A stretch of 64,000 bases of DNA from an uncultured Bacteroidota bacterium (GCA_902802755.1 CADCNH010000010.1:41300-105299); one strand, 5' to 3'. Counted from the stretch's first letter, positions 8,529-51,968 are shown. The notes: generated by a model not told the origin, from the letters alone. Numbers and translations: made by a program.

Positions 8529-8703
8529 TAATCAATAACATCTGGCAAATATACATGTTTTTTTTAGAATACGGAATGTTATACCGAAAATACAACAGCA
8601 TAGTGCACTATAATTTCTTTTTTCATGATATTTTTGACTCATCGTGTTACATTTGAAAAATTTTACCTATTTTTGCTATTGATTTTTCTCCAATTAACAA
8701 ATA

Positions 8704-9549
8704 ATGAAGAAGATAGTCTTATTGTTATACGTATTTTTCACAATCTGCAGTGTGACTGCCCAAATGAACTATTATGTTGGGATTCCATCGCATATAGCCT
8801 ATATAAAAGATTCCGCTCGTTTCGTAATCGCTAACTTGCCGTGGAACTATAACGGACGGATAGAGCAACGAATGATGCCATATTATCTTGAACCCCTAAA
8901 ACAATTCATGGACAAACACCCTGGCTTTAAATGCAACTTCTTGTTGTACGATTGTGTACAAAGCGAAGAGATGAGTTTGGCCTTCACGACCTATCAGGCA
9001 GAACGACTGAGACAGTATTTTTTATATGAGGATACTCTGTTCGGTCAACAATATCTCAACGAAATCATTCCCCACGGTTGCGCCAATCCATTATTCAAAG
9101 ACTTACAAGTGGACAGCAGCCAGCGGATCTACCGTTCAGAGGTTAACAATTCTCTTAAATCCAGTGTCATTATTGAGCTGATACAACAATACCCCATACA
9201 GAAGATGATACAGAAAAGCGCCTTTTACGCACAACCATGTGAAGGGGAGGTTTTTGACGTTGCGCCGGCATTCCAAGGCGGAACACGTGCATTATATGAT
9301 TATTTGCTGCAACATATAGATTACTCGGTGGTTGGTCAAGCCGATGTAAGTGGGGTTATACTGGTAGAGTTCTTCATTGAAGCAGACGGCAGTGTTTCTA
9401 TGCCTGAAATCAAACGGAAGCTGTTCCCAGACTTGGATGAGCAAGCCTTGCGGATTGTTCGCAATATGCCCAAATGGAAACCCGCCAGCAAAAATGGACA
9501 AGCTGTCCGTTGCCGGTACAAAATCCCCTTGTACTACTATTTGCAATAG
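8704..9549 (+). CDS. Secreted protein with TonB-C-like C-terminal domain
   Basis: 281 aa with a signal peptide. The C-terminal roughly 90 aa (PAFQGGTRALYDYLLQHIDY ... GVILVEFFIEADGSV ... AKNGQAVRCRYKIPL) matches the TonB_C / energy-transducer fold pattern. Confidence 0.6.
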   Translation: MKKIVLLLYVFFTICSVTAQMNYYVGIPSHIAYIKDSARFVIANLPWNYNGRIEQRMMPYYLEPLKQFMDKHPGFKCNFLLYDCVQSEEMSLAFTTYQAERLRQYFLYEDTLFGQQYLNEIIPHGCANPLFKDLQVDSSQRIYRSEVNNSLKSSVIIELIQQYPIQKMIQKSAFYAQPCEGEVFDVAPAFQGGTRALYDYLLQHIDYSVVGQADVSGVILVEFFIEADGSVSMPEIKRKLFPDLDEQALRIVRNMPKWKPASKNGQAVRCRYKIPLYYYLQ

Positions 9550-9563
9550 TCATATAGAAAGAC

Positions 9564-10496
9564 TCAGTTTCTCTGCACATCATCCTTGGCCCGGCTGGTG
9601 GTTACCAGATAGACACCCACCACAATTAGCACCAGCGCCACGGGCTTGTTCCAAGTAAAGATGTCCTGTCCCAAGGCGATGGCCACACAGGCAGTTACCA
9701 CAGGCTGCAAATTACTATACATGCTGACCGTGGTAGGCCGCAGCACTTTCAACGACAAGGGCAACAGGAAGTAGGACACCACCGTGGCAAAGATTAAAAT
9801 GGTCATCAAATTGAGCCAAGCGGAGACAGGAACAGCATTATACAACATCGGGCAAGTCTCTTGTGAGAGATGGTATATGGCCAATGGTGCGCAGATAATG
9901 CTGCCGTATAAAAACATCCACTTCATCATGGTCACGGGACTGTATTTCTTGGAAACACTGCGTGTAATCAGCAGATAGGCAGCATAAAACAGGATATTGA
10001 CAAAACACAGAAGCAAGCCCAGCGGATGAGCGTTCGCATCGATTTTCCACGAGAAAAGCACAATCATCAGAGCACCGCAGATACCCACAAACACACCAGC
10101 GGATTTCCGTATGGAAATAGGTTCCTTCAAGAAAATGGCAGCCAGAATCATTACCACCAGCGGACTGGTGGCAGAGATCAGCGACACATAACTGGGCGAG
10201 GTATAGCGGAATGCCTCGGCAAAAGCGACCAGGGTTCCTGCCAGCACAACAGCACCGAAGACAAACAGTCCCATGTCTTTTTTCTCCACCTTCTCGTGCT
10301 TGAAAAACAAAGACAGCAGCCAGAAGCCCGCTGCCCCGAACAGCATACGCACTTCCGTAAACACTTCCGGATGGATATACTCCGGAATGATGGCTTTGGA
10401 ACAATTAGGGTTGATACCAAAAATGATATACACCGCCAGTGCCGCCAAATGGCCGACCCATTTAGGGGGAGTATAGGATGAAGTATTCAAAGTCAT
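9564..10496 (-). CDS. EamA/DMT-family transporter
   Basis: 310 aa, about 10 hydrophobic helices arranged as two EamA-like halves. Confidence 0.8.
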   Translation of the reverse strand: MTLNTSSYTPPKWVGHLAALAVYIIFGINPNCSKAIIPEYIHPEVFTEVRMLFGAAGFWLLSLFFKHEKVEKKDMGLFVFGAVVLAGTLVAFAEAFRYTSPSYVSLISATSPLVVMILAAIFLKEPISIRKSAGVFVGICGALMIVLFSWKIDANAHPLGLLLCFVNILFYAAYLLITRSVSKKYSPVTMMKWMFLYGSIICAPLAIYHLSQETCPMLYNAVPVSAWLNLMTILIFATVVSYFLLPLSLKVLRPTTVSMYSNLQPVVTACVAIALGQDIFTWNKPVALVLIVVGVYLVTTSRAKDDVQRN

Positions 10497-10565
10497 TTTT
10501 CAAGACAATAGTGTTATAAAATAAAAAAAGTGCAAAAACATTCTTCAAATATTTTTGCACCTCTA

Positions 10566-10639
<74 letters not shown>

Positions 10640-10921
10640 CTATTGTTTTGCAAAAGTACAATTTTTTTTGAAAAACCAACATTTTCAAAGATATTTTACT
10701 TTACCAATTAAACATTTGATTATCAGAGTTATACACAAACTCTAGTTCTGATTTCACTTTTTTTATGATACAAATTGCTCCATTTTTCGGAAGAATAAAG
10801 GCATTTTTTGACAAAACAAATGTACTTTTCGGATGAAAAACATCCTATTTTCCATGAGATGGAGCGTACTCCGTCTCCGCAATAAAAACAGTTGATTTAC
10901 GTTTATTTCAGGAATTTTCCG

Positions 10922-36520: not shown

Positions 36521-39500
36521 TCAATTAATAATCGGTTCTTTACAGGAATCCAAATAATTCAAACCCTTCAATTTCAATTCTGGATAATTGAGGATAGACA
36601 AAGGTGTTTCGCTTTTCTTAAGGTAGGACGTGGGTATTACTGTAGCCGTCAACATCATTGACTTTACCACAGGATTTTTCGAGATACCTATGAACTTTTT
36701 CACCTGTTCAAGATTTTCCAGTATCCACTTATGACGACGTAGATGTTTCAAAACAAGAGCTTTGTCTTTTTCGGTGCCTTCCCCCCTGCCAAGATAATCA
36801 TCCATCTCTTTCTTCATTTCACGTACATTCTTGGCTGTGGTGGTATTTTTACATTCTATGGAATAGAGTATATTCTTGGCGGGATAGTAAGCCAAAACAT
36901 CAATATCGCCATAATCTGTATTTTTTGTCGTCACATTTAAATTACCGTTGGTTTTGATGGAGACATCGTATGGCCATACTGTCAATCCTGATAATTGACT
37001 TAAAAAGGACCGGACTTCCTCATTAAAAGTATGACCTTTTTTTGTCTGGAACTGGCTTAATACCTTTTCCAACTCCCTTCCCCCATTTCTCAACCGTCCC
37101 GAATAGAGTAAATCCGTTAATTGAAAACCGGCTGCTATACAGGAACGGAAACCGAACATGCACAAAACCTGACCATTTGGGGTTTGATGACGAACTATCG
37201 GACGCCTTAAATAGCTAAGCTCCCTGTTATAAATCCAAGGGAAGATGTCTTTTCCATTCAGACCGGAAGGCGGTGTCAGATAATTCTTGCGTTTGTCAAG
37301 TGAAAGACGGCTGATACAGTTCTTTATTGATTCCACAGTCATTTCTGGGTAGATCGTTTTAACTTCAGTCACCAAATCATCTTCCATAATACTTATAACT
37401 GACACCTGATGATTCATTGCAATCACATAACACGCATACAAAAGCTGTAGTATATCGGAGTATGTCACACCCCAGTCCGCTTCAAAGGCCTCATCTATCT
37501 TTATTTGTTCCTTATCTTTTTCAACCACTTTCCTTGGCTTTTGTGACGTAAGTCGTTCCATCGTTTTTGCAAAGACCTCAATTTGGTAGTTTACACTCTC
37601 TTCTGAACGGGCACTGGCAAAACCACCTAATGAGTCGTTGAAATCTTCATCGTTGATTTCATAACGTGCAGAAGGAAGCAACTCTATGTTATGGTCGGCC
37701 ACTTCAAGATGAATTGCATCACAAATACCGCCAATTCTAACCACATCACTTGCAATGGCAAGCAAATATTCCACATCATCACCTCCATGTTGCTTCATGC
37801 CAGTTTGACTTTGAGTAGCGGCCAAATACTCAATCAACACCCGGGTGGCAAGACTTGTTTCTGTAAGCCGGTTTTCATCTGCCAAAAATTTCTTTCTTTT
37901 CTCCGGGGTATCACCAAAACAAATAATCTGGGCAGGGTGAATCACTTTGTTATGCTCACGTATATGAATCAAGGTTTCGTGGTTGTTGAGCAAGGTTTCG
38001 AGCAAGGCTTTGGTGTCAAAATCGGCAAGTCCCTCCTCAAGTTTTTCCAAAAGCACATCCACGCCGGAATGTAAAAATTCAACTTTCTGCTGTTTATCCT
38101 CCAGTTTGGTGATTACAAATCCTTTATCGGCCATCCACCTTGGAAAGAGGTCAAGTAACAACTGATTTGTGGCTTGATGAATATAAATTGGAGGATAAAG
38201 CCATAGAGGCGATTCCATTGGATTGTTGGACACCTCTGTCATCAATATCATTTTAGTTTGGCCAAACGGTATTCTTTCGTCAATTATCGCTGTTGCAGTT
38301 GAATAATCAAGGCCAAACAATTCCTTGACTATAGCCAACATCATTTTTCTTTCAGAGCCATTGTCTGGGACCATAAATGATTGTATAAAATCACGGTCAA
38401 GTGAAACCATTACTCCTTTATCATTTTTAGTTACAGTCAATGATCCGGCACCTTTCGTTGGCTTGATTTCGGTGTATTGTCCTTTGTCAGAAAGAACATC
38501 CTCACTTAATTGCAAATCGATTTCGACTGTCTTAGTATAATGCTGCTTTACCAATCCCTTTAACAATGAGCTCAACTCATCCATCCAAAAGACTATCGCC
38601 GTGATGATGGTTTCGATAATCGAAAACGGATTCACCCCCTTCCCTTCTATTTGCGAGCACCTTGACCAAACAGGCACAGGATATGATTCGCAACATTCAG
38701 CTACGATTGATTTGTCAAGGGGTTTATAAATATTCCTATAGTCCGTATGCCGCTGTACGGGTATATAGGCATAATCGCTATCAAGTGAAAGAAGCACGCC
38801 ATGAAAATTCAGTTTCTCCTTGCTTTCAAAAATCAGATGAAAACCGTCGTTAGGTTGAACATATATAAAATTCGGGCTGGTCTTGTCAGTCACATAAAAG
38901 CTTTCACCATAGTGCTTATAGAGCGAGTATAAATCAATTTCTTCATTAAATGGCGAACCCAAGTACTGCTGAAGTTCTTTTGTACGAGCATAACGCACCA
39001 AACTCATGTTGTCCCATTTTTCCGTTTGAATCAATTGCAGGAAATCAAAAGCGGGAAACCTCAACAGGTAATTAGTATCAGGTTGTTTTCCAATATCCAC
39101 AGAAAACGACTCACCCATAGTGGAATAAAGAACCAGTGTCAGGACATGATTGTCTTTTGTCCTGGGATCAAGCCTTAACTTTGACAACGTTTCTCTCAAA
39201 TGAGTTTCAATGCTCCATTGGGTTTGATTATTTTTACCGTCAATAGAGACATTTGTTTCGTCATCCTTCGTGTAACAAACGTATGCGAGCCAATTGTTGT
39301 CAATCTGAAACAGTTCTTCGCTGCAACGAGAGTTGGAAGATAGCAGATCGTTGTAATCAGAGGTGCACCAACGCATGCTATTAATGCAAGATGAACCAAT
39401 CCGCATCCATACGGTGTGTTGCGTATGCTGCACGAGTTCCTGTAAACAGCTATACTTAACCGCTGTTTTCAGAATAAAGTTGTTGATAGCGCAACCCTGA

Positions 39501-40357
39501 TTAAACAGCCCTAGAAAAAAATAATTACCATTGTAGGCAACGATAGGTTTGAACAAAATAGGGTTCTCGTCATCAATATTCGTTAAAAGTTTTGGGTCGT
39601 TGTTATCAATGACAAACGAATCCAGCACACGCTTTTTGATGCCGAAACGCCCGAGAAGCCCTGCCATCATTTCGTCAGAAACAGCAAATGATTGTTTTGA
39701 TTTTGAATCAACAAGTTTTTCGTGTTGTTGCTCATTGCCTCTGATCCGCCCATGTATGCCGGCACGGTCAGCCAGCATGTTCCCCAATTCAAGAATCAAA
39801 GTTACACCCTGATATACATCCCTCTGAAAATCGACTGGGAAAATGTCATTCCGATAAAAGACGGTCTCCGACATAGCACGAAACAATTCCGCCACATGCG
39901 TTGATATGCCCGGGAAGAAAACGTAGTTGCCACCATAAAACACAACTTGTTCGGTGTACATATTGATGGGCAAATCCTCCATCACGTCCATTGGATACTC
40001 TTCGTCAACGAGCGACTTGAAGACATTAAGATTGGGAGCCGCCTGACTTTTCCCTAATGACGCCACGGTCAATTGTGAAAGATGCTCAATACGAAGATTC
40101 TTGCCATGGTTTTGAGGATTTAGCTGCAAGGCAATCAGGTAATCCATTATAGGAGTGACATCATATTTTTTGAGAAAAGTTTTGATTTTCGGAGCATTAT
40201 GTCCTGAAAATTTGGGTAACATGTCGATCAACTTGGTTGAACCAATCTCTGACCGATCCAACTGCAAACAACAATGCTTATATTTCTTACCACTACCACA
40301 AGAACATGGGTCGTTTCTTCCAATCTTCTTTGGCATATGCTTGCATCTATCAATCAT
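36521..40357 (-). CDS. 1278-aa protein: N-terminal SEC-C zinc motif, long uncharacterised body, C-terminal PD-(D/E)xK-like nuclease motif
   Basis: GRNDPCSCGSGKKYKHCC at 40262-40320. C-terminal GHTFNEEVRSFL ... YGDIDVLAYY ... ILYSIECKNT at about 36845-36990. I found no Walker A (GxxxxGK[ST]) anywhere. AT-rich. Confidence 0.75.
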   Translation of the reverse strand: MIDRCKHMPKKIGRNDPCSCGSGKKYKHCCLQLDRSEIGSTKLIDMLPKFSGHNAPKIKTFLKKYDVTPIMDYLIALQLNPQNHGKNLRIEHLSQLTVASLGKSQAAPNLNVFKSLVDEEYPMDVMEDLPINMYTEQVVFYGGNYVFFPGISTHVAELFRAMSETVFYRNDIFPVDFQRDVYQGVTLILELGNMLADRAGIHGRIRGNEQQHEKLVDSKSKQSFAVSDEMMAGLLGRFGIKKRVLDSFVIDNNDPKLLTNIDDENPILFKPIVAYNGNYFFLGLFNQGCAINNFILKTAVKYSCLQELVQHTQHTVWMRIGSSCINSMRWCTSDYNDLLSSNSRCSEELFQIDNNWLAYVCYTKDDETNVSIDGKNNQTQWSIETHLRETLSKLRLDPRTKDNHVLTLVLYSTMGESFSVDIGKQPDTNYLLRFPAFDFLQLIQTEKWDNMSLVRYARTKELQQYLGSPFNEEIDLYSLYKHYGESFYVTDKTSPNFIYVQPNDGFHLIFESKEKLNFHGVLLSLDSDYAYIPVQRHTDYRNIYKPLDKSIVAECCESYPVPVWSRCSQIEGKGVNPFSIIETIITAIVFWMDELSSLLKGLVKQHYTKTVEIDLQLSEDVLSDKGQYTEIKPTKGAGSLTVTKNDKGVMVSLDRDFIQSFMVPDNGSERKMMLAIVKELFGLDYSTATAIIDERIPFGQTKMILMTEVSNNPMESPLWLYPPIYIHQATNQLLLDLFPRWMADKGFVITKLEDKQQKVEFLHSGVDVLLEKLEEGLADFDTKALLETLLNNHETLIHIREHNKVIHPAQIICFGDTPEKRKKFLADENRLTETSLATRVLIEYLAATQSQTGMKQHGGDDVEYLLAIASDVVRIGGICDAIHLEVADHNIELLPSARYEINDEDFNDSLGGFASARSEESVNYQIEVFAKTMERLTSQKPRKVVEKDKEQIKIDEAFEADWGVTYSDILQLLYACYVIAMNHQVSVISIMEDDLVTEVKTIYPEMTVESIKNCISRLSLDKRKNYLTPPSGLNGKDIFPWIYNRELSYLRRPIVRHQTPNGQVLCMFGFRSCIAAGFQLTDLLYSGRLRNGGRELEKVLSQFQTKKGHTFNEEVRSFLSQLSGLTVWPYDVSIKTNGNLNVTTKNTDYGDIDVLAYYPAKNILYSIECKNTTTAKNVREMKKEMDDYLGRGEGTEKDKALVLKHLRRHKWILENLEQVKKFIGISKNPVVKSMMLTATVIPTSYLKKSETPLSILNYPELKLKGLNYLDSCKEPIIN

Positions 40358-40955: not shown

Positions 40956-43730
40956 TTACAACACCGTTATACTTCCCGTTAACTGATATGGAACACCCCG
41001 GCTATCGGTAAAATTAATCAAATAAGTATAGATAACATTTTGATTGATTCGACCATGATACTCGCCATACCATTTGAAATCCTTGTCATTTGAATAGTAT
41101 ACCAACTCTCCCCAACGACTATAGATGCGGATTTCGAATTCTTCTATCATTGCTTTGTACTTGTCGTGGAGTCCAAAATAATCATTCAAACCGTCTTCAT
41201 TTCCCGGTGTAATGGTGTTTGGTAGATAAATATTTAACTCACAAGTTTCTATTTGATACCATGCAGATACTGAGCAATTCCCTTGAGCAGCTGTTACAGT
41301 ATAAATGCCAGGTTGAGTTACAATGATAGTTTGTGAAGTTTCCCCTGTACTCCACATATAATTCATTATATTAGTCTCTACAGATAATTCTGCATAATAC
41401 TCTTCACAAAAATCCGAAGTCAAGGAGTTGATTGCTATTGAAGTATCCACTATGGTGAGATGAAGGGTCACAATACTATCACACTCGCTTTGGCTTTGCA
41501 AATTTTGAGTCATGTTCAAGTTTGTCACACCAGCTGTTTGAGTAGAAGGAATATTGAATCCGTGATTGTTATATGCAAAGCCTTCGCAAATAATGTCCTC
41601 AAAACTAATCTCGTACACTGGGTTTATCGTTAAGTGCAAAGTATCCGCACTGGCACAACCATTAGTATTAGTGTATTCAAAAATGTAAATACCAGAAGTA
41701 GAGTATGTTTCACCATTACCATCTATCCAAGTATAACTTTCGCAAACAGAGGTATCAAGAATATTGTGTGTGCCATGGTAAATAGCAAGGTGTAAGGTCA
41801 TAATACTGTCTGCCCCATTAATATCTTGGAATCTTTGGACATAATCACCGCTTGTTGTATATGTGCTATCATTCCATGTATATGAATCGCAAGATACGAC
41901 CGAAAATTCGCCTGAGAAGGAATAGTGAATAGTCAAATGCAGAGTATCTGCCTGGTTACACCCATTAGCATCTGTATGATTGTATATATAATTGCCTGAT
42001 TGGTTGTATGTCTCGCCATGCCATATATAAGTATCATATGCGGATACCGTCTCGCTTTCGTGCAGAGGAATGTTTACTGTCAGATGTAAAGTGTCTGTGG
42101 ATACGCATCCGCCAACATTATTGTAGTTATAAGTATATGTACCCGAGGATGTGTAAGTTACACCATGCCATGTATAACTCTCACAAACAGTTGTGTCAAA
42201 TACATTGGAAGTATTATAACGAACAATCAAGTGCAGAGTGTCAGTACTTGGGCAACCATTTACATTGTTATAGTTATGTGTAAATGTACCCGAGGTGGTG
42301 TATATTACATCATGCCACTCATAACTATCACAAACAGTTGTGTCAAACGAATTGTGAGTATTAGAACGAACTATCAAATGTAGGGTATCAGCACTTGGGC
42401 AACCGTCAGCATTAATGTAGTCATAGGTATATGTACTCGTAACATTATATGTTTCGCCCATCCATTCGTAATATTCACAAACAGTTGTGTCAAACACATT
42501 GTATGTGCTATAACGAACCGTCAAATGTAGCGATACCACACTATCGCAACCAGCATCATTTGTAAAGGTATGCCTAAATGTGCCACTTCCACTGATATTG
42601 TTGTATTCATACCAACTGAAACTATTACAAACTGTTGCTATAGTGTCACTTGTATTGTCATGATTTACTGTCAAATGTAGTGTTACCACGCTGTCACAAC
42701 CATTACGTTTGTTGAAATACTGAGTGTAATCACCACTTTCATAGTATGTGACACCGTTCCATTCATAACTATTACAAACTTCTTGTGATAGCCCCATTGA
42801 GTCTGTAGGAGATATGTATAATTGAAGGGTAAGAGAAGAGATGCATTCATCAGTAGTAAGCATTCGACTTCGGGTAAGTGTACCCAATATTCTGGTTTCC
42901 ATCTCTGAAAGACTAAAGCCATTGGCTTCATAATTAGTTCCTTGACAAACCGTATCGTATATTGTTTGCGAAGTGCCCGTCCCTACAATAATAGTCTGTT
43001 CTGCAGTATTACTGCATCCATAGTCAGTAGTTGCAGTTACGGTATATGTGGTAGTTTGTGTAGGTGAAACATTAATGTATGGGTATGTACTGCCCGTGTT
43101 CCAAAGATAAGTTAATGATGTATCATACCCCATTCTTGCAGTTGTAAAACTATGTACTGCACGGACATGACAAATAGAAGTTTTGGAAGTGTTGTTAAAA
43201 GAACCTCCAGAATAGTCATTTATTCCAAAATCTATCCTCCAGCTATTTGTTTCCGAGAATTCTGCACTACACCAATACCAGTCATTCGACATAGAAGTTC
43301 CACCTGCATTGATAATTGAAGTAGAAATAAAAGGCAATTGACCATATAGCATTCTGAGTTGAGCCGGAGAAGGTAATACCCAACCATTTTCAAAATCCAC
43401 AACACCTGCAGCATAACCAGTGTTAACATTCTGATACATACGAATGATTTGCGTATTAGTATAACCTGCTGTATCTGTTAATAAATCCTGATAATAAAAC
43501 GGATTTAAATTAATTAATGCTGGCACATCAGTAGTTGTTCCCCAAGCACATCCCGTGGATGCATCTGTCAAAGCTACAACCCATCCAACACCATTGGAAT
43601 TGATATAATATATTATACCGCTACTACCATTGGGTAATGTATAAATATCTCCAATTCGGTATGACTGTGCCATCAATGTCATCACCCAACTAAAAAACAT
43701 CAGAAAAAATAATAATATTTTCTTGTTCAT
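40956..43730 (-). CDS. Secreted surface protein: N-terminal DUF1566-like domain, about 9 Cys-containing tandem repeats, T9SS type-B C-terminal sorting domain
   Basis: 924 aa with a signal peptide. GYTNTQII..GWVLPSPAQLRMLY..YWCSAE..CHVRAVHSF (DUF1566 pattern). Repeats C(N/D/E)SY(E/T)W.G.TY..SG.Y......GC.S..TLHL.V. C-terminal LPNTITPGNEDGLNDYF...ITVL is a gliding-motility-associated CTD. Confidence 0.8.
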   Translation of the reverse strand: MNKKILLFFLMFFSWVMTLMAQSYRIGDIYTLPNGSSGIIYYINSNGVGWVVALTDASTGCAWGTTTDVPALINLNPFYYQDLLTDTAGYTNTQIIRMYQNVNTGYAAGVVDFENGWVLPSPAQLRMLYGQLPFISTSIINAGGTSMSNDWYWCSAEFSETNSWRIDFGINDYSGGSFNNTSKTSICHVRAVHSFTTARMGYDTSLTYLWNTGSTYPYINVSPTQTTTYTVTATTDYGCSNTAEQTIIVGTGTSQTIYDTVCQGTNYEANGFSLSEMETRILGTLTRSRMLTTDECISSLTLQLYISPTDSMGLSQEVCNSYEWNGVTYYESGDYTQYFNKRNGCDSVVTLHLTVNHDNTSDTIATVCNSFSWYEYNNISGSGTFRHTFTNDAGCDSVVSLHLTVRYSTYNVFDTTVCEYYEWMGETYNVTSTYTYDYINADGCPSADTLHLIVRSNTHNSFDTTVCDSYEWHDVIYTTSGTFTHNYNNVNGCPSTDTLHLIVRYNTSNVFDTTVCESYTWHGVTYTSSGTYTYNYNNVGGCVSTDTLHLTVNIPLHESETVSAYDTYIWHGETYNQSGNYIYNHTDANGCNQADTLHLTIHYSFSGEFSVVSCDSYTWNDSTYTTSGDYVQRFQDINGADSIMTLHLAIYHGTHNILDTSVCESYTWIDGNGETYSTSGIYIFEYTNTNGCASADTLHLTINPVYEISFEDIICEGFAYNNHGFNIPSTQTAGVTNLNMTQNLQSQSECDSIVTLHLTIVDTSIAINSLTSDFCEEYYAELSVETNIMNYMWSTGETSQTIIVTQPGIYTVTAAQGNCSVSAWYQIETCELNIYLPNTITPGNEDGLNDYFGLHDKYKAMIEEFEIRIYSRWGELVYYSNDKDFKWYGEYHGRINQNVIYTYLINFTDSRGVPYQLTGSITVL
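41450..42780 (-). repeat. Coding tandem repeats (about 150 bp / about 50 aa, roughly nine copies)
   Basis: Successive units begin CNSYEWNG, CNSFSWYE, CEYYEWMG, CDSYEWHD, CESYTWHG, YDTYIWHG, CDSYTWND, CESYTWID, CEGFAYNN. Each ends with (T/S)LHL(T/I/A)(V/I). Confidence 0.8.
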
Positions 43731-43821: not shown

Positions 43822-46116
43822 TTAAAAAGAGAAAACACTTCGCACCCTAAAACGACTCCTCTTACTACTGAAAGCCACTTCTCCCGTATTTGTCACAACC
43901 CATGCATTGGAAGCCCCATGTTCTGTAGAAGACCAATAAATCCATGCTTGACCCATAGGAAATGGCGTTCCTCCAACATTTTCCATGGAAGCGTTGATAG
44001 TTGTTAATTCTGCAAAAAGCAGGCTCAGTTGTCCAACTGTTGGCAAATACCAACCATTAACAAAATCTATCGCCTGTACAACTGGACAATCATGTGAATA
44101 ATACATCCACTGCGTGTTTGTGTAACCATTCAAATCAGTAATAGCATCACGAGCGTTTGTAAAATTAGGTATAGTTGAAAAATCATTATTGTAATAACCT
44201 GATGATGTCCAAAATACATTTATTCCTTGGTCTTGTAAATGCACCGCCCATCCGTGCAACTCAGTATTGTCCACATAGAACACTATACCTTTGGCGATTT
44301 TACCTGGCACAGGCCAAGCAGTGGGTTTAACGATGCTACTATCTGTACAAAGGATATCACCAATAGCAACAGTGGGAGCTATACCATCCTGTGAGAAGCC
44401 AGAACTAGTGCCTAGAGCAAATATTGTAGAACGCTGCCCTATACAAATCTCAACTGGCTGCGCCAATGCAGTAAGCGAAGGTGTACTCGTTACCAACAAC
44501 TGCAAGATACGCACACTATCACAACCTTGGCTTGTTATATAACTATTGATAAACCTGAACCAGCCAATGCTGTCTTGTCTTGCCAAATTAAAACCATAAC
44601 GGTGATATGTATTACCCTCACACAAAGTATCCTGAAAAAAATAATGGTATGTTGGTGAATGGATTACCTCTATCGGGATACTACCACTACCACAACCATT
44701 AGTTCCTGTTAGAAAAATCTGAGCAGGATTAGGAGCATCATTAGTGAAATATAAGTTAACTGCGGCAGTGCCTTGTCCTGTCAGAATATTTACACCCACA
44801 GGCACATTCCAATAGAGAGTGGCTAACCCTTCAGCTTGTAATAGAACATACTGAAACGCTTCGTTGTCGCACACCATAGTTGGTCCGCTTATACTATTAC
44901 TCAATATAAAAGAGGGATTAACTGTCAAGTGCAATATCGTAAGCTGATCGCAACCTGAAGGAAGAACCATCACCAATGTGTCTGTATAATTCCCCGTTTG
45001 TAGATTTGTATAGTGAAAACCATAGGCATTATAATCATCACCTTGGCAGGCTGCGTCATAGAGATGATGATATCGGGGCAAAATAGTTAGATGGAGTGTT
45101 GTCGTCATCTCTCCACCGGTACAATTTCCGCTATTAAAAAATGTGTTTCGATAGGTATGGGTACCTGTATTATATTGTGCAGGTAAATCAAAAAAATGGT
45201 CATTATATATGTCGCCCTCACATATCGTATCATATATAGTTGTACTGACAATAGGAATTGTGGAATCTGCCATAAAAATACCGCTAAGGGTAAACTGACA
45301 ACCTGTGACAGATGTTATCAAACAGTTCGCATTTGTTGTACCCTCCCCAGCTATATAGGTAGAGCTAATCAATGTATCACCATTATCCCAAGTATAACTT
45401 TCAAAATTAGCAGGGGCAGTCAAAGTAAACTCATCACCCTCGCAACCATCTAATGTCAAGCGATTATTGATACATGAAGCGGTATAATAAGCATAACCAA
45501 AATGCCCATGTCTTGAACAATCATAATTTACAAATTGAACAAAAACATACTGCCCAGCATAGTCAGAGAGATCAATGCCAACTTTTGTCCAAGGGCGCCA
45601 TTGTATCCAACCAGATGCATATGATTGAAAACCTGGAATATCACCTGCCGCAGTCACATCATATTCGGCACAACTATCCACCAACTGTCCTATACTATTA
45701 AGCACTCTCACCACAAAACGAGGTTGATCAGGTACTGGATGACGGGGATCCTCAAACACTACCGCAAATTTCAACAGCAATATAGCACGATCAGGATCTA
45801 CTATAAACTTGTAGGTAATTGCTTCCGCCTCAGCACCAACTTGTTCATTGCCGAGCTTTACAACGGCATTCTCTCCTGGTGGTAAAAAAGGCAACTGATG
45901 CCCCGTGTTTGGATCAGTCCCTTGTTGGGTAATCACAGTATGCCGTCCTACAACAACACCCGTATACTGCATTGGATTCTGGGTATTACCATATTGACAG
46001 GTTACATTTGAATCACTTAAATTAGTAAAATCGGGACACTGAGCATGTATCAGTAGTAAAGTACTACTTAAATACAATAATAAAAGCAAAATCCAACTTT
46101 TCATCCCTGTATACAT
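43822..46116 (-). CDS. Secreted surface protein with the same Cys-repeat type and a C-terminal DUF1566-like domain
   Basis: 764 aa with a signal peptide. Repeats ...C.G..Y..(Y/H)GF......G.Y......GCD...L.LTV. C-terminal GIVFYVDNTELHGWAV..GYTNTQWM..GWYLPTVGQLSLLF..YWSSTE..RVRSVFSF. Confidence 0.75.
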   Translation of the reverse strand: MYTGMKSWILLLLLYLSSTLLLIHAQCPDFTNLSDSNVTCQYGNTQNPMQYTGVVVGRHTVITQQGTDPNTGHQLPFLPPGENAVVKLGNEQVGAEAEAITYKFIVDPDRAILLLKFAVVFEDPRHPVPDQPRFVVRVLNSIGQLVDSCAEYDVTAAGDIPGFQSYASGWIQWRPWTKVGIDLSDYAGQYVFVQFVNYDCSRHGHFGYAYYTASCINNRLTLDGCEGDEFTLTAPANFESYTWDNGDTLISSTYIAGEGTTNANCLITSVTGCQFTLSGIFMADSTIPIVSTTIYDTICEGDIYNDHFFDLPAQYNTGTHTYRNTFFNSGNCTGGEMTTTLHLTILPRYHHLYDAACQGDDYNAYGFHYTNLQTGNYTDTLVMVLPSGCDQLTILHLTVNPSFILSNSISGPTMVCDNEAFQYVLLQAEGLATLYWNVPVGVNILTGQGTAAVNLYFTNDAPNPAQIFLTGTNGCGSGSIPIEVIHSPTYHYFFQDTLCEGNTYHRYGFNLARQDSIGWFRFINSYITSQGCDSVRILQLLVTSTPSLTALAQPVEICIGQRSTIFALGTSSGFSQDGIAPTVAIGDILCTDSSIVKPTAWPVPGKIAKGIVFYVDNTELHGWAVHLQDQGINVFWTSSGYYNNDFSTIPNFTNARDAITDLNGYTNTQWMYYSHDCPVVQAIDFVNGWYLPTVGQLSLLFAELTTINASMENVGGTPFPMGQAWIYWSSTEHGASNAWVVTNTGEVAFSSKRSRFRVRSVFSF

Positions 46117-46678: not shown

Positions 46679-49600
46679 TTATTGTTGTTTTTTCACTTCC
46701 TTATCATGGATTTTCCGAAGATTCTCAAGTACTTCCAAAATTGGTGCCGTGTTTTTTTCACTTTCAGGAATTAGGGGGTCATCATCCCATTCTAACGCAT
46801 TGACTGCCATACTGGAATCTGTAATGCGCCAAGCATCAATAATGACTATTGATGTGACTTCAATAGCTTCTTCAAAGTCATCGGGCACCTGAATTTGGTT
46901 GTTGTTATCTATAGCAAGAGCCATCAGTTTGCATTTGCCAAAGTGTGGTAGAAACTTTTCTAATGCATCAAGACTATATGTATTGTTGGGAGTCATTGTA
47001 TGCTTACGACACATCACTATAAAATACCGTCCCATCTTTAAGTCAGCGTCAGGAATATTTGGAGAAAGGCACACTCGATACCATGAAGGGTGATTTTTAT
47101 CGATTCCTTTTATCAAATACACTTCAACTCCAGGTTTTCCTACCGCTATGTTATCTTTCCATTCCTTAACAATTTTTTTGCCTTCTGAGATGTTCTCATA
47201 AAGTAGAGCCAATAGAGGAGGCTCTTGCATGCTCTGATCTATAATAAATCCCATTCCTTTCCAAATTGCATCATCCCACCACTGCATGTTTGTTGAAACA
47301 TTGTAAATAGACATTTTCTGCTGTGATGATGTGTATTGCTGGGTCTTCACCATCCACTTTTCCATATCTTTAGCAAGACATGTATAGATTTTGTCTTCTT
47401 CTTTCTGCCATTGGCTAATGGAATACTTGAATTTGTTACCTAATACCAAGTAGACCGACTCATTTAATTGCATTAATGAGGATACCCTGTCAATTATTTT
47501 CTCTTTGTCCTGTTTCTTTTTTATCAATGTTTCCAAATTGTAGTTTGAAACCGTATTGTAGGACATAAAATGACTTATGAAATAAGAGAAACATCGCCAA
47601 TAGTCCTTGTTCAAAGAATCATGATTGATACTGAAAATGTATTCCGTGTTAGAAGATCTTCTAATTTGTGAAGTTTTATCATTAGTCTCTTTTATCGTAA
47701 TTCTAATCTCTGGATTTACAATTACTAATTCAAAATCTATAAAAGTAGCAAGCAACGTTTCAACCGAAGCCAAGAATGTCTCTGCCACCAACTGATTCTT
47801 TACAGAGTTTTCGTATGTAACATAAAACCGACAATTATGCACCATTGTATTTAGGGCAACCTCTCCATCTGTTGCTAAATTAAGAGCACTTAAGAATTGC
47901 TCATGAATAGGTTGATTTTGTAGTAATAATGTCCAGTCATCTTTTATCATTTCAGAAAACCTTTCATTTACCTCTTCTTTGTATCCAAGAACATATTTAA
48001 GATAATTGGCACATAACGGCATATCAAATCTTTCAAAGATGTCGGGAAGTATTGAGATTTCCGACTTGGTAAAATCAGCAGCTGCTAAATGGCAACACCA
48101 GCCTCCTTCCTCCATAGTGTCACGTTCTATAAATTCTTCTGTTTCATATTCTTGTCTATTATTGGCAATGACATATAGTAATTCTCTCCAATTAAGATAC
48201 ATGACAAGCCGCCCAAGTATCAATTCTATTCCACAAAGTTGAGAAATGACTCGCATAAGGAGTTGTGGTATTGTGCCCTGAGAATAAAACTCTCTCATCA
48301 AGAATGATGCAGACTTAACAAGATATGCTTCTGCACTATATGGAAGATCCAAATGACTCAGTGCTATTCCCATAAGCCCACATGTCTTTATGTATTCATC
48401 CTCATACCCTTCTTTTAGGAATGCTTGTACGCAATATCCCAAATGCTTTATGGCTGGAAGATGACACATCTTTTCCATCAACGCTTGAGCACGACTGAAA
48501 TGAATCAATGCACCTTGAACATCAGATTCTCTTGCCGATGAAATTTCAGCCACTTTATCGACCAGTTTTTCAAACTGTTCATTGTTTGTGATAACACGCC
48601 CCATCATGTCAATGATTCTGGATTGGGCATCAAAGCTGATGTCTACGTAGTTCACACTTTTTTCAAGCAATTCTGTAAGTGCTCTGATTTCATCTGACAA
48701 ATCTTTTTCAGCATAGATAAGTTGGAATAGTCTGTGTTCTGAAATATAAATATCTATAAATAGTTGACAGGGCTGTGATAAATCCGAACGCTCTCTTATA
48801 GACTTAATGAATTCTACCTCTATAATGAATTTTTCTTGGTCAAAAAGTCCAATCTGTGTAACATTCTCAATATTGGTCAAAATATTGGTCAACAACTCTA
48901 TTGTATGCACAGATGTATGTACAGACGCATAATCCTTCATTTTCAGATAGTCTTCATAAGTTGCATTTATGTCATTGAACCAAAAGAAAGTTGTCCATGC
49001 ATGATTATATATTATGTTGAATGTTTGAATAGGGGTGCCGTGTACTTTGGCTTCTCTCAACGCACGGTCAAACCGACCTTCTGTTTCTACTCTTGGCTTT
49101 CCTAATCCCCTGCTAAGCAAACAGGTCTCCAATAAATCATCAATATACTGTGTGTTAAGGCCCTCTATTGAACGAGTAAGAAAACCGTCTTCTAAATCTT
49201 TCAAATCCTTCGACCTTTGTTTGTCATTTGGACCAATAATAACTGTTTTCTTGCGATATTCGTCAGAGAAGTTCATTTTGTCTACTGCCAAGTCCAAACA
49301 CCCTTGTTCAAATACAGCAAAAGAGAACCAATTACCATCAAAGATACTAACCGGAATAGAATATTGCTTGGTAAGTTTGTCCTCAACTTCACAGCGTTTA
49401 CTTGATTTTATTTTTTGATTTGAGAAAAACAAGATTTTGGTATATCCTCGTTCCGTCCCAACTATTTTTTTCGTGTCATTTGTTACTTTTTTCTCCCATG
49501 TCTTCTGTACACTGATTGCAATTGCCCATTTTTGATCGCCAGTGCATCCATCAGACACCCACCACTTATCAGATATGGATTTATCTACAGGATATGTCTC

Positions 49601-49900
49601 TCCATCAACCTTTCCATCTCCTCCTCCGTCTGGACCAGTCTGCGGCTTGATGTTTGGTGTAACGAGACGAGATGCAACAGACAAAGCAAAGGTTTCGAAC
49701 TCAGACTGCTTTTTGTCCTGAGATAATTGTTGAAGTTTTAAATCGAAGACTTCTTTGGTTAGCTTTGTTTCATATACAATCTCCGTATCCGAAAAAAGAT
49801 TACTCCTTAAACGACGGTAGTAGGAAAAAAAATCCTCACGTAATAGTTGAATTTCATCCTCTTCAGAGCACGTATCTTCATGTAATTCTTTTTCTTTCAT
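46679..49900 (-). CDS. 1073-aa protein: N-terminal Mrr-like restriction-endonuclease motif plus a long alpha-helical (TPR-like) body
   Basis: SEFETFALSVASRL ... TGPDGGGDGKVDGETY ... WAIAISVQKTW at about 49500-49700 gives the FE / D-G-x-D / (S/V)-Q-K pattern of Mrr_cat nucleases. No P-loop found. Strongly AT-rich. Confidence 0.7.
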   Translation of the reverse strand: MKEKELHEDTCSEEDEIQLLREDFFSYYRRLRSNLFSDTEIVYETKLTKEVFDLKLQQLSQDKKQSEFETFALSVASRLVTPNIKPQTGPDGGGDGKVDGETYPVDKSISDKWWVSDGCTGDQKWAIAISVQKTWEKKVTNDTKKIVGTERGYTKILFFSNQKIKSSKRCEVEDKLTKQYSIPVSIFDGNWFSFAVFEQGCLDLAVDKMNFSDEYRKKTVIIGPNDKQRSKDLKDLEDGFLTRSIEGLNTQYIDDLLETCLLSRGLGKPRVETEGRFDRALREAKVHGTPIQTFNIIYNHAWTTFFWFNDINATYEDYLKMKDYASVHTSVHTIELLTNILTNIENVTQIGLFDQEKFIIEVEFIKSIRERSDLSQPCQLFIDIYISEHRLFQLIYAEKDLSDEIRALTELLEKSVNYVDISFDAQSRIIDMMGRVITNNEQFEKLVDKVAEISSARESDVQGALIHFSRAQALMEKMCHLPAIKHLGYCVQAFLKEGYEDEYIKTCGLMGIALSHLDLPYSAEAYLVKSASFLMREFYSQGTIPQLLMRVISQLCGIELILGRLVMYLNWRELLYVIANNRQEYETEEFIERDTMEEGGWCCHLAAADFTKSEISILPDIFERFDMPLCANYLKYVLGYKEEVNERFSEMIKDDWTLLLQNQPIHEQFLSALNLATDGEVALNTMVHNCRFYVTYENSVKNQLVAETFLASVETLLATFIDFELVIVNPEIRITIKETNDKTSQIRRSSNTEYIFSINHDSLNKDYWRCFSYFISHFMSYNTVSNYNLETLIKKKQDKEKIIDRVSSLMQLNESVYLVLGNKFKYSISQWQKEEDKIYTCLAKDMEKWMVKTQQYTSSQQKMSIYNVSTNMQWWDDAIWKGMGFIIDQSMQEPPLLALLYENISEGKKIVKEWKDNIAVGKPGVEVYLIKGIDKNHPSWYRVCLSPNIPDADLKMGRYFIVMCRKHTMTPNNTYSLDALEKFLPHFGKCKLMALAIDNNNQIQVPDDFEEAIEVTSIVIIDAWRITDSSMAVNALEWDDDPLIPESEKNTAPILEVLENLRKIHDKEVKKQQ

Positions 49901-50001
49901 ATTTGTTTATTGTTGACGATTCCAAGTTCCTTTTCTGACAATCACTTTACTTATTTCCTATCCTCTCAATTGTTCAAACATAAATGCAGTTTTATCCCTA
50001 T

Positions 50002-50613
50002 TTATTCCGCCCTAATCCCCAACGCCTCAAACAGTTCTGCCATTTGAGAGTAAGTGTAATCCCTTTCCGTTTCTTCTTTCTCTTTCATGGATTGGGCGGC
50101 ATTGCGCAATGCCAGCATGAAATCACCGCCTGCTTTCTCAAAATATTGATGAAGCGAGTGCTTCTTGAAAAAGATTTCAGTTTTCTCATAAACGCAATGA
50201 TTGTTCAATTCTTTCAATAGTTCAGGCTGGTTTTGAAAACAGCGAGATGTGTATGCAAAATAAAACAGGAAAAAGATCTCCGTACAACGCTCATTCTCAA
50301 TAAAACGAATCTCATATTTCTGCTTCGTCTTCCCTATCGTATGTGTGCCCACCATCCGCTTTTTAAAGCGTTCATAGTCGCTCTTTTCTTTCCCTTCTTT
50401 TTTGTTGTCCATGTCAACCACACAAATAATCTGCGAATAGCCAGCATCTATCGCCTTGTCAATTTCTTGTTTAAGATAATCCAGTCCCGAAGAATGTTTG
50501 GGATAGGTAGGCCTTATGTTGAGCTGCCTGTATGTATCTTTCAAAGAATTGAAATAGTAGTATTCCGTAATTGCTTCGCCAATCACTATAATAGAATCCT
50601 TAATTTTCTTCAT
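50002..50613 (-). CDS. RloB-like protein
   Basis: 203 aa. IIVIGEAITEYYYFNSL (compare the EGEKTEPNYF motif), QIICVVDMD, IRFIENERCTEIFFLFYF. Its start overlaps the upstream ATPase gene by 14 nt. Confidence 0.75.
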   Translation of the reverse strand: MKKIKDSIIVIGEAITEYYYFNSLKDTYRQLNIRPTYPKHSSGLDYLKQEIDKAIDAGYSQIICVVDMDNKKEGKEKSDYERFKKRMVGTHTIGKTKQKYEIRFIENERCTEIFFLFYFAYTSRCFQNQPELLKELNNHCVYEKTEIFFKKHSLHQYFEKAGGDFMLALRNAAQSMKEKEETERDYTYSQMAELFEALGIRAE

Positions 50614-51703
50614 CGTTTTCCAAATATAATAAAGGTGAACCCAATTGGGGAACTGCGCCTAAGCGGCCATTCCGATATGACTTGTATAAAGAAAGATTCT
50701 TGTGCAGCCCGTATTCATCCGCACGTGTGTATTCGGAATAAGCACCGTCGCGGTTCTTCTCCGCAAAGAACACAAAATCACGATGTGTATTCAACAGGTC
50801 TTCGTTCAACAATGAAGTCTCTTGGCTGGTGAAAATCAACTGCGACTCATTAGAATTCATGACGAATGTGTTGAGGAAATAAAGCAACAAATCATCGTGC
50901 AGCTCTGAGTCTATCTCATCTATGAAATATATATTGTGGCTTGAAATCGCATTGTAAAGCGTTGATAAATTGCTTAAAAACTTTTTAGTCCCTTGAGACT
51001 GCTCATCCAAACTGAGGGTAAAAGTTTTGCCACCAGCTTTGCAATCAAAGTAAACTTTTGTCGTAGAAATGTCCTCACGGAAGTCCACAATATTAAAATC
51101 GGCTTTTTCCAACATCTGGAGATAGAAGCGCTTGGCTGAAGCAACCCCCATCACCTGTCGAAGCGATTCTTCAAGAATGAAATTCGGATTGTCGAGCTGA
51201 TATACATATTTAGATATCCAGTTATACAGATTTGCGATGGGTTTGGCATCGGCCTCAAATGCTCTCTTGCCGAAACAAGAAAGAACGGTATGGTTGTTTA
51301 AAGTGTTTTGCAGAAAAATGTCCTTTGTTTTGGCTGACAGGCCCAAACTTTGACCGAATTTAATGGAGGCTTGCAAATCATCAGACTGGTATTTGCGTTC
51401 ATAAAAAAGTGACTTTGAACCGTTCGGAAACCATTCCATTAGCTCTTCGATAATATGCTCCATCGTAAAAGAAACGGTGTAATCGTATCGGATATGGTTA
51501 GCGTAGAACGAAACATACATCCGTGTGGGTTTGTCTATACATAAGGCAAATGGTCGCCTCGTCTTAACTAACTCTGTTTTATTTTCCCGCGTATGAAACA
51601 ACAGTTCGAAAACCCAGTCATCCTCCTTGGATTTCGTTTCGAAGTTTAACGTTTGACGTTCCTTTATCGAAAGAAAATTCTCGACCCAAAATTCTCGTAT
51701 CAT
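50600..51703 (-). CDS. AAA_21/ABC-type ATPase (RloA-like) lacking a Walker A motif
   Basis: N-terminal MIREFWVENFLSIKERQTLNF, a signature-like DEQSQGTKKFLSNL, and Walker B/D-loop IYFIDEIDSELHDDL. The expected G.N.SGKS P-loop segment after LVKT is absent (an apparent deletion of about 35-40 aa). Confidence 0.7.
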   Translation of the reverse strand: MIREFWVENFLSIKERQTLNFETKSKEDDWVFELLFHTRENKTELVKTRRPFALCIDKPTRMYVSFYANHIRYDYTVSFTMEHIIEELMEWFPNGSKSLFYERKYQSDDLQASIKFGQSLGLSAKTKDIFLQNTLNNHTVLSCFGKRAFEADAKPIANLYNWISKYVYQLDNPNFILEESLRQVMGVASAKRFYLQMLEKADFNIVDFREDISTTKVYFDCKAGGKTFTLSLDEQSQGTKKFLSNLSTLYNAISSHNIYFIDEIDSELHDDLLLYFLNTFVMNSNESQLIFTSQETSLLNEDLLNTHRDFVFFAEKNRDGAYSEYTRADEYGLHKNLSLYKSYRNGRLGAVPQLGSPLLYLENDEEN

Positions 51704-51873
51704 AATATTCGTATTATTTTTTTGCCGCAAAAATAATAAAAATATTGATACGATTGGAAAATAAATCTGATTTTCGTAATAAAACTACAAATTCAATGAA
51801 AATTTTTCTTCATATTCATTTTTTATATTGACAGAATTAATCAGCTATCGCTAATAATTCGAAGTTTTTTTAC

Positions 51874-51968
51874 TTGCTGTTATTAGTTTTTATTGTATTG
51901 CTATTGTTAGTTTTTATTGTCTTACTACTATTAGTTTTTGACGTCTTACTACTGTTAGTTTTTGACGT
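51874..51968. repeat. Four tandem 24-bp repeats
   Basis: ttgctgttattagtttttattgta / ttgctattgttagtttttattgtc / ttactactattagtttttgacgtc / ttactactgttagtttttgacgt. They lie about 170 bp upstream of the ATPase gene. Confidence 0.85.

Follow-up and report, generated by a model that had tools for sequence, protein, structure and literature searches.

The window analyzed here is a 64,000-nucleotide stretch of DNA from an uncultured Bacteroidota bacterium (GCA_902802755.1 CADCNH010000010.1:41300-105299), the term being used for the whole of that stretch. Three open reading frames (ORFs), all on the minus strand, follow one another in it in the order ATPase, RloB, 1073-aa ORF: an AAA_21/ABC ATPase gene of the abiLi type (367 aa; 50600-51703), an abiLii or RloB-family gene for a Toprim-like partner (203 aa; 50002-50613; Pfam RloB, PADLOC AbiLii) and a stand-alone gene for a 1073-aa protein, which homologue searches assign to a large, uncharacterized family (46679-49900). 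An earlier note, made from the sequence alone, had described three same-strand genes, a 14-nt overlap of the first two and a gap of about 100 bp before an AT-rich large ORF, all of which agrees with the ORF calls: the ATPase and RloB genes overlap at 50600-50613, 101 nt (49901-50001) separate RloB from the large ORF, and the GC fraction is 0.32-0.40 across the three-gene region. As listed, the ATPase ORF starts at a TTG at 51730 and runs into a promoter-like box; the ATG at 51703 is preferred, homologues of the protein beginning with MIREFW. Overall, we find it rather probable that two defence modules lie side by side here and are independent of one another, namely an AbiL pair and a self-contained large gene encoding an Avs4-like sensor-nuclease without an NTPase.

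Domain architecture and distribution of the 1073-aa protein

AlphaFold2 models, Foldseek searches and residue conservation were used together to divide the large protein into domains. Residues 1-222 (49235-49900, minus strand) were modeled from an alignment of 30 sequences drawn from both Bacteroidota and Proteobacteria (pLDDT, the per-residue confidence score, 77.5) and resemble a restriction endonuclease of the PD-(D/E)xK type. The top Foldseek match of this model was chain B of EcAvs4 (8dgf_B; E-value 1.8e-3, probability 1.0, 163 columns, root-mean-square deviation 4.0 Å, TMq 0.45), followed by EcoT38I (1.3e-2, probability 0.99), FokI (5.4e-2, probability 0.85), BamHI, EcoO109I and the Can2 nuclease. 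The α/β core expected of PD-(D/E)xK proteins was superposed on known members with moderate support. At the fold level, and at that level only, the N-terminal domain thus modeled would be a restriction-endonuclease-like nuclease domain.

The earlier note had read a Mrr_cat pattern into the first ~135 residues, a description that was borne out for the motifs and not for the family assignment. The motifs are present at residues 66-71 (SEFETF), 89-100 (GPDGGGDGKVDG) and 129-133 (ISVQK), and most of their residues are invariant over 61 diverse family members filtered to below 70% identity. Invariant positions of the N-terminal region include F68, E69, G89, P90, G92-G94, D95, K97, D99, E101, W125, S130, W135 and K138, of which E69, D95, K97, D99, E101, S130 and K138 are encoded in 49487-49696. 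Pfam Mrr_cat (PF04471) did not match the window protein, either over its full length (E<=0.1) or over its N-terminal 225 aa (E<=1). Searching PDB sequences with the catalytic domain of E. coli Mrr (phmmer) did not reach Avs4 and provided no sequence bridge between the two, and phmmer and hmmsearch of the large protein against the same sequences returned noise only. When the protein was aligned by eye with the E. coli Mrr line RFEV...GDGGIDG...VQAK, the FE helix, GDGKVDG opposite GDGGIDG, and SxK opposite QxK fell into register; this line-up is one of inspection and not of statistics.

The nuclease-like domain is followed by an all-α solenoid resembling tetratricopeptide repeats (TPRs) at residues ~223-670 (47891-49234, minus strand) and by two α/β domains at residues ~671-835 and ~863-1050 (46682-47890, minus strand), the latter delimited from the secondary structure of the model. 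In the full-length model (AlphaFold2, 15-sequence alignment, mean pLDDT 79.9), residues 224-669 are helical without interruption, and Foldseek against the PDB matched the model to LGN/Pins TPR proteins (TMt 0.5-0.57), the STAND-TPR structure 6mfv, Rap and NprR; against BFVD, only repeat proteins were found. The structure prediction that had been suggested for the helical body therefore returned a TPR-like answer, and the earlier description of the remaining ~900 residues as helical repeats holds for residues ~224-670 and fails for residues ~671-1073, which are α/β. Neither a Walker A nor a Walker B motif was found by regular-expression search anywhere in the 1073-aa protein, and the family alignment contains no conserved P-loop-like columns, in keeping with the previous observation that NTPase motifs are lacking. 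Compared with the Avs plan, the protein has the N-terminal effector and the C-terminal repeat sensor and lacks the central STAND NTPase, its model being all-helical at 224-669. The resemblance to a nuclease-plus-sensor effector that was noted from the sequence is thus carried over to the models, with an N-terminal restriction-endonuclease-like domain, TPR-like repeats and no NTPase.

Conservation differs along the chain, with mean pairwise identities of 0.60 in the nuclease core, 0.45 in the TPR region and 0.35-0.38 in the C-terminal domains, which are the most variable. A conserved nuclease core joined to a divergent TPR region and C-terminus is the pattern expected of a fixed effector coupled to an evolving sensor.

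The family is large and broadly distributed. A word-indexed search returned 563 homologues, and an exhaustive profile search gave 2083 representatives of clusters built at 50% identity. E-values under 1e-30 were obtained for 648 of these, and among the representatives listed, nearly all are 1040-1130 aa long. Source records name them only "hypothetical protein" or "tetratricopeptide repeat protein". Hosts include Bacteroidales, Capnocytophaga, Runella, alpha-, beta- and gamma-proteobacteria, Desulfobacterota and Oligoflexales, with Cyanobacteria and Bacillota among the phyla represented, and the gene was found in 13 plasmid records (Nostoc and Cohnella included), 10 of which are conjugative or mobilizable. 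Within two genes of family members lie BrxL of bacteriophage exclusion (BREX), short pAgo/SIR2, AbiP2/DRT reverse transcriptases, SoFic and PDC-S01, as well as Schlafen/AlbA_2 with HATPase_c_4, type III restriction-modification (R-M) genes, integrases and relaxases. No match to the 1073-aa protein was found in Pfam, PADLOC v2.0.0, NCBIfam r20 or PHROGs v4, and a literature search, which was not exhaustive, located no described single-gene nuclease-TPR system like it. The family is accordingly listed here as a candidate new single-chain nuclease with a repeat sensor, predicted from its models and uncatalogued in the libraries tested.

Two family matches carry an additional domain and may be fusions or chimeric gene calls: P0019 (1154 aa), with PF07724 AAA_2, and P0077 (1055 aa), with PF13087/PF13091 at 61% query coverage. 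A 44%-identical member is encoded on L061 (MT836254.1), the single phage record with a homologue, which is deposited as 'UNVERIFIED: Bacteriophage sp.' This record also encodes DUF4099/DUF3945, a MutS_I-domain protein, a trypsin-like peptidase, DUF1848 and a UvrD-like helicase. By its content, DUF4099/DUF3945 in particular, it looks less like a phage than like a fragment of a Bacteroidales conjugative element (conjugative transposon).

The AbiL pair and its boundary with the large gene

The first two genes form an already known system. The ATPase matched PADLOC AbiLi (4.7e-50) and Pfam AAA_21 (2.6e-11), and the RloB protein matched PADLOC AbiLii (1.2e-10) and, across the whole profile, Pfam RloB (2.7e-23), with both Pfam matches exceeding the database cut-offs. 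AbiL has been classed with defence systems that combine an ABC (AAA15/21) ATPase with a TOPRIM-type nuclease, such as OLD, Gabija, PARIS and MADS3-4 (PMC11464382). The adjacent AbiLi and AbiLii genes and their 14-nt overlap, as in a coupled pair, identify this part of the locus by sequence as AbiL, a two-gene, translationally coupled abortive-infection system; the restriction-linked module recognized earlier thereby acquires a name. The window RloB protein was found in identical form on 18 contigs.

The ATPase of the window differs from intact AbiLi in one respect. Its AAA_21 match covers profile positions 54-304 only, without the Walker A portion, because 34 residues (ASVDMGNEKRVNKLAVIYGANASGKSNMLLALLN) that include the P-loop GANASGKS are missing relative to alleles of 401-427 aa; Walker B (IYFIDEID) and the signature-like SQGTKK are retained. 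DNA alignment with L044 and L046 placed the junction of a 102-bp in-frame deletion at 51613-51614 (minus strand), with both flanks 100% identical. The exact 367-aa ATPase is recorded on one contig only, whereas its cluster at 90% identity has 307 members, most of those listed being 400-401 aa long, and an intact 401-aa ATPase is encoded by L044-L047, which share the same locus (ATP-grasp, AbiLi, RloB, the 1073-aa gene and the PKD_6 protein). The Walker-A-less state, correctly noted for this sequence, is by these alignments a recent, strain-private deletion allele and not a trait of the gene family. Since the deletion removed the Walker A loop, the AbiL of this strain has probably lost the ability to bind ATP, and it is most likely either inactive or locked off; judged by sequence, the copy is an AbiL member by descent that is probably defective.

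Other contigs of the same population carry different lesions. L050 (228-1334) has a separate in-frame deletion of 33 aa in AbiLi that removes the signature region SQGTKK (window 50933-51032), and in L051 the 5' part of AbiLi has been lost (window 50837) and the 1073-aa gene carries an internal deletion (window 48769-48936 missing). The two independent in-frame deletions in AbiLi each took out exactly one ATPase motif, Walker A in the window and the signature motif in L050. Selection may thus have acted to disable the ATPase but retain the protein as a scaffold, so that RloB would be trapped in a complex where its nuclease is inactive.

Linkage between the pair and the large gene was assessed in 36 loci from species-representative genomes that carry the large gene, using tblastn with the window AbiLi and AbiLii and clustering of ORFs. 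An adjacent AbiLi or AbiLii was found in none of the 36, the sole match being a weak ATPase ~8.5 kb upstream in L007, and the three families (AAA_21, RloB and the 1073-aa protein) accordingly do not co-occur across these divergent genomes. No ORF cluster was common to more than 4 of the 36 loci, and no small conserved partner was found directly upstream of the large gene in proteobacterial loci. The large gene is likewise free of AbiL neighbors in L037, an 86%-identical relative with a Fic gene upstream, and on Agrobacterium and Cohnella plasmids, where it is monocistronic with a divergent gene upstream. The suggestion that the large protein borrows an NTPase from the neighboring pair is contradicted by these occurrences of the large gene alone, and the window ATPase is a poor candidate donor because its P-loop has been lost. 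The three genes are retained together only in contigs whose DNA matches that of the window at 96-100% identity across the trio.

The converse arrangement, AbiL without the large gene, was found in L054-L057 (about 6600-10700). Here the AbiL pair, whose RloB falls into the same 90% cluster as that of the window, precedes a 67-aa ORF and an operon (patatin, SMODS, E1/E2) of the cyclic oligonucleotide-based antiphage signaling system (CBASS). This operon is CBASS type II-like, with a SMODS cyclase, and is followed by an Eco57I/MmeI-like methylase. The 1073-aa gene and the CBASS operon are, from the aligned sequences, alternative occupants of the same slot downstream of AbiL, a slot that holds interchangeable defence cassettes. 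Homology between L054-L057 and the window extends from 51805 to 49961 and ends 41 nt beyond the RloB stop, inside the gap; DNA homology between L037 and the window is limited to 49904-46661, from 4 nt before the ATG of the large gene to 18 nt after its stop. Because the one block ends at 49961 and the other starts at 49904, the two modules have, in these alignments, separate recombination boundaries within the 101-nt gap.

The gap had been described as lacking an obvious TAnnTTTG box, which proved incorrect: TATGTTTG, at 49975-49982 (minus strand), is an exact motif match and represents a -7-like box or else what is left of the start of a small ORF. It is nevertheless weak evidence of a promoter, because the motif is common (72 occurrences in the window against 56 expected), because the site falls inside the AbiL-side homology block shared by the window and L054 that ends at 49961, with an ATG that corresponds by offset to the start of the 67-aa ORF of L054 (20 nt past the RloB stop), and because, among 21 Bacteroidales relatives, only 5 have a TAnnTTTG box in the 150 nt preceding the large gene, against about 2 expected, a comparison that is uninformative. 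The gap also carries a 7-codon remnant at 49958-49981 (minus strand; ATG TTT GAA CAA TTG AGA GGA TAG), whose start coincides with that of the 67-aa ORF when both are counted from the RloB stop and which marks a cassette junction near 49961. Upstream of the pair, TATTTTTG at 51728-51735 (minus strand) resembles a Bacteroidetes -7 box, by motif match only, and lies 25 nt upstream of the ATPase ATG.

Proposed role of the large protein and alternative explanations

Avs4 (AVAST type 4; EcAvs4, PDB 8DGF), which consists of a Mrr-like nuclease, a STAND ATPase and a TPR sensor, resembles the large protein in giving the best N-terminal structural match, in the order of nuclease and TPR-like array, and in being encoded by a single gene. 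PDB entry 8DGF, in which Avs4 is bound to the phage portal, is described as EcAvs4-Mrr-portal, and the Mrr domains of Avs4 assemble on tetramerization (10.64898/2026.08.25.746987). Unlike Avs4, the 1073-aa protein has no STAND NTPase or α/β P-loop core between nuclease and TPR, is ~460 residues shorter and possesses extra α/β C-terminal domains; no sequence-level similarity between the two was detected. Upx, a defence nuclease that senses phage terminase, offers a second comparison. It too is one long chain that combines a PD-(D/E)xK effector with the absence of an NTPase, and phage proteins are reported to be sensed by it or to activate it (PMC13601566, PMC13099982). The 1073-aa protein would share this logic, and an Upx-like gene is present in the same island. 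The 1073-aa protein differs from Upx in having no match to the Upx models, no sequence similarity and another domain order, and a TPR solenoid is not a feature of Upx.

Following these comparisons, we infer from the models that the large protein is best read as an NTPase-free, Avs4-like sensor-nuclease acting as a single-protein phage defence. Sensor and effector would reside in one chain, forming a self-contained single-gene unit. A ligand derived from the phage, probably a protein, would be bound by the variable TPR solenoid together with the α/β domains at the C-terminus, and binding could then lead, through a conformational change and either relief of autoinhibition or oligomerization, to the N-terminal PD-(D/E)xK domains being brought together in an active state. 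The active nuclease would cut DNA, so that the phage is stopped or the infected cell killed. Nuclease activity, trigger, mode of activation and defence function are all proposed here by analogy with the systems named above. A wider proposition, that the family represents phylum-spanning, uncatalogued single-protein immune receptors, in effect "Avs4 without the STAND ATPase" with a TPR/α-β sensor coupled directly to a Mrr-type nuclease, is more tentative, and we would put it at a serious possibility that falls somewhat short of even chances. Were it true, NLR-like pattern recognition would work without nucleotide-driven oligomerization.

Several observations weigh against an Avs4-like nuclease or against two separate modules. 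The nuclease call goes back to one Foldseek match at 1.8e-3 and weaker matches to restriction enzymes, and the part of the 1534-aa Avs4 chain that was aligned is not displayed. Pfam Mrr_cat matched none of 30 diverse family N-termini even at E<=10, and hhalign against E. coli Mrr was negative (probability 0.2). The catalytic lysine expected after S130 is not fixed in position and shifts by 0-2 positions between clades, while the loop with the invariant GPDGGGDGKVDG is poorly modeled, pLDDT falling below 50 at residues 86-113 of the full model and at residues 89-94 and 112-116 of the domain model. The C-terminal ~400 residues have no Pfam match, and the full-length Foldseek results against PDB and BFVD are dominated by TPRs and silent on these domains. 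That PADLOC v2, NCBIfam and PHROGs have no model for the family can be read either way. As regards linkage, co-transcription of the large gene with AbiL across the 101-nt gap may occur in this strain, and the three genes stay together in the lineage of the window, including L040-43, where both outer flanks differ from those of the window and an Eco57I-like methylase lies downstream. The block can therefore move as one piece, which at such a short distance is no proof of functional dependence.

One alternative, which we consider unlikely, casts the large protein as a Mrr-like type IV restriction enzyme that depends on DNA modification, in which the C-terminal α/β domains read modified phage DNA and the TPRs serve only as a scaffold or for oligomerization. 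Its N-terminal fold is like that of Mrr-type and type II/IIS nucleases, with the FE helix, the G-D-G-x-(I/V)-D-G loop and the (Q/S)-x-K strand following one another as they do in E. coli Mrr if the by-eye alignment, itself an inference, is accepted; the gene stands alone beside R-M and BREX genes, and its C-terminal domains have no assigned function. Mrr/Mrr_cat nucleases differ from it, however, in that the 1073-aa family has no PF04471 match among 30 members, carries its nuclease at the N-terminus and has no winged-helix DNA-binding domain, and no SRA, YTH or winged helix was detected by Pfam. A TPR array of ~450 residues is typical of protein-binding sensors, as in the LGN, Rap, NprR and STAND-TPR matches, and the regions on the sensor side are the fastest evolving, as would be expected in an arms race over a protein ligand.

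It is also improbable, in our estimate, that the large protein has no part in defence and is instead a maintenance or addiction factor of mobile elements, or a housekeeping scaffold with a catalytically inactive N-terminal domain. Such a role would accommodate the varying position of the catalytic lysine, the failure of sequence profiles to recognize a nuclease, and the frequency of the gene on plasmids and on contigs resembling integrative and conjugative elements. Against it, the acidic residues E69, D95, D99 and E101 do not vary from phylum to phylum, as a conserved active site would require, the distribution is patchy with variable neighborhoods that include defence genes, and the gene occupies the slot where other contigs have a CBASS operon.

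We consider it very unlikely that the three genes work as a single system, with the AAA_21 ATPase and RloB activating or powering the NTPase-less nuclease/TPR protein: their common strand, tight spacing, ambiguous sole promoter-like match in the gap and joint presence in 96-100% identical contigs (L040-43 with both flanks different included) would fit it, yet they do not co-occur in any of the 36 genome loci, in L037 or on either of the plasmids examined, AbiL elsewhere precedes CBASS and is already complete with two genes in PADLOC, homology breaks off on either side of the gap, the ATPase lacks its P-loop here and its signature motif in L050 while the large gene is intact, and conservation at so short an evolutionary distance is expected from shared ancestry alone.

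With two adjacent modules as the preferred reading, the three-gene arrangement is an accident of island organization. For annotation, the AAA_21/RloB pair should be labeled AbiL, here as a P-loop-deletion allele, and the 1073-aa gene should not be bundled with it. If the latter proves to be a defence gene, a very abundant single-gene system would be added to the catalogue: the family has ~2000 clusters at the 50% identity level, and it is found in Bacteroidales of gut and rumen, in soil Proteobacteria, and on cyanobacterial and Bacillota plasmids. It would also serve as a natural test case for the activation of a Mrr-type nuclease by a TPR sensor when the STAND ATPase used by Avs proteins is missing.

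Island setting and neighboring features

The three genes sit inside a low-GC stretch (0.32-0.41) at about 40 to 52 kb of the window, flanked on one side by housekeeping genes for PNPase, phosphofructokinase and a radical-SAM enzyme and on the other by housekeeping genes for ATP-grasp, Band_7 and YitT proteins. The location is thus a small low-GC island in a Bacteroidales chromosome.

The Upx-like gene of this island (36521-40357, minus strand) lies 6 kb from the 1073-aa gene and encodes a protein of 1278 aa with an N-terminal SEC-C zinc motif, whose C-terminal ~670 residues match anti-phage Upx. The match reached 5.5e-50 in PADLOC and 200 bits against the NCBIfam model Upx_antiphage, far under the 1900-bit equivalog cut-off, and the protein is a distant relative of Upx. 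Between it and the 1073-aa gene, within the low-GC stretch, are two genes for large secreted proteins with no obvious defence connection. The first (40956-43730, minus strand; 924 aa) carries a type IX secretion signal, CHU_C, and the second (43822-46116, minus strand; 764 aa) has PKD_6 and Lcl_C domains. On the other side of the three genes, a 24-nt tandem repeat (unit TATTAGTTTTTATTGTCTTACTAC on the plus strand; 3.5 copies, 84% matches) occupies 51881-51963, ~150-230 nt upstream of the promoter-like box of AbiLi.

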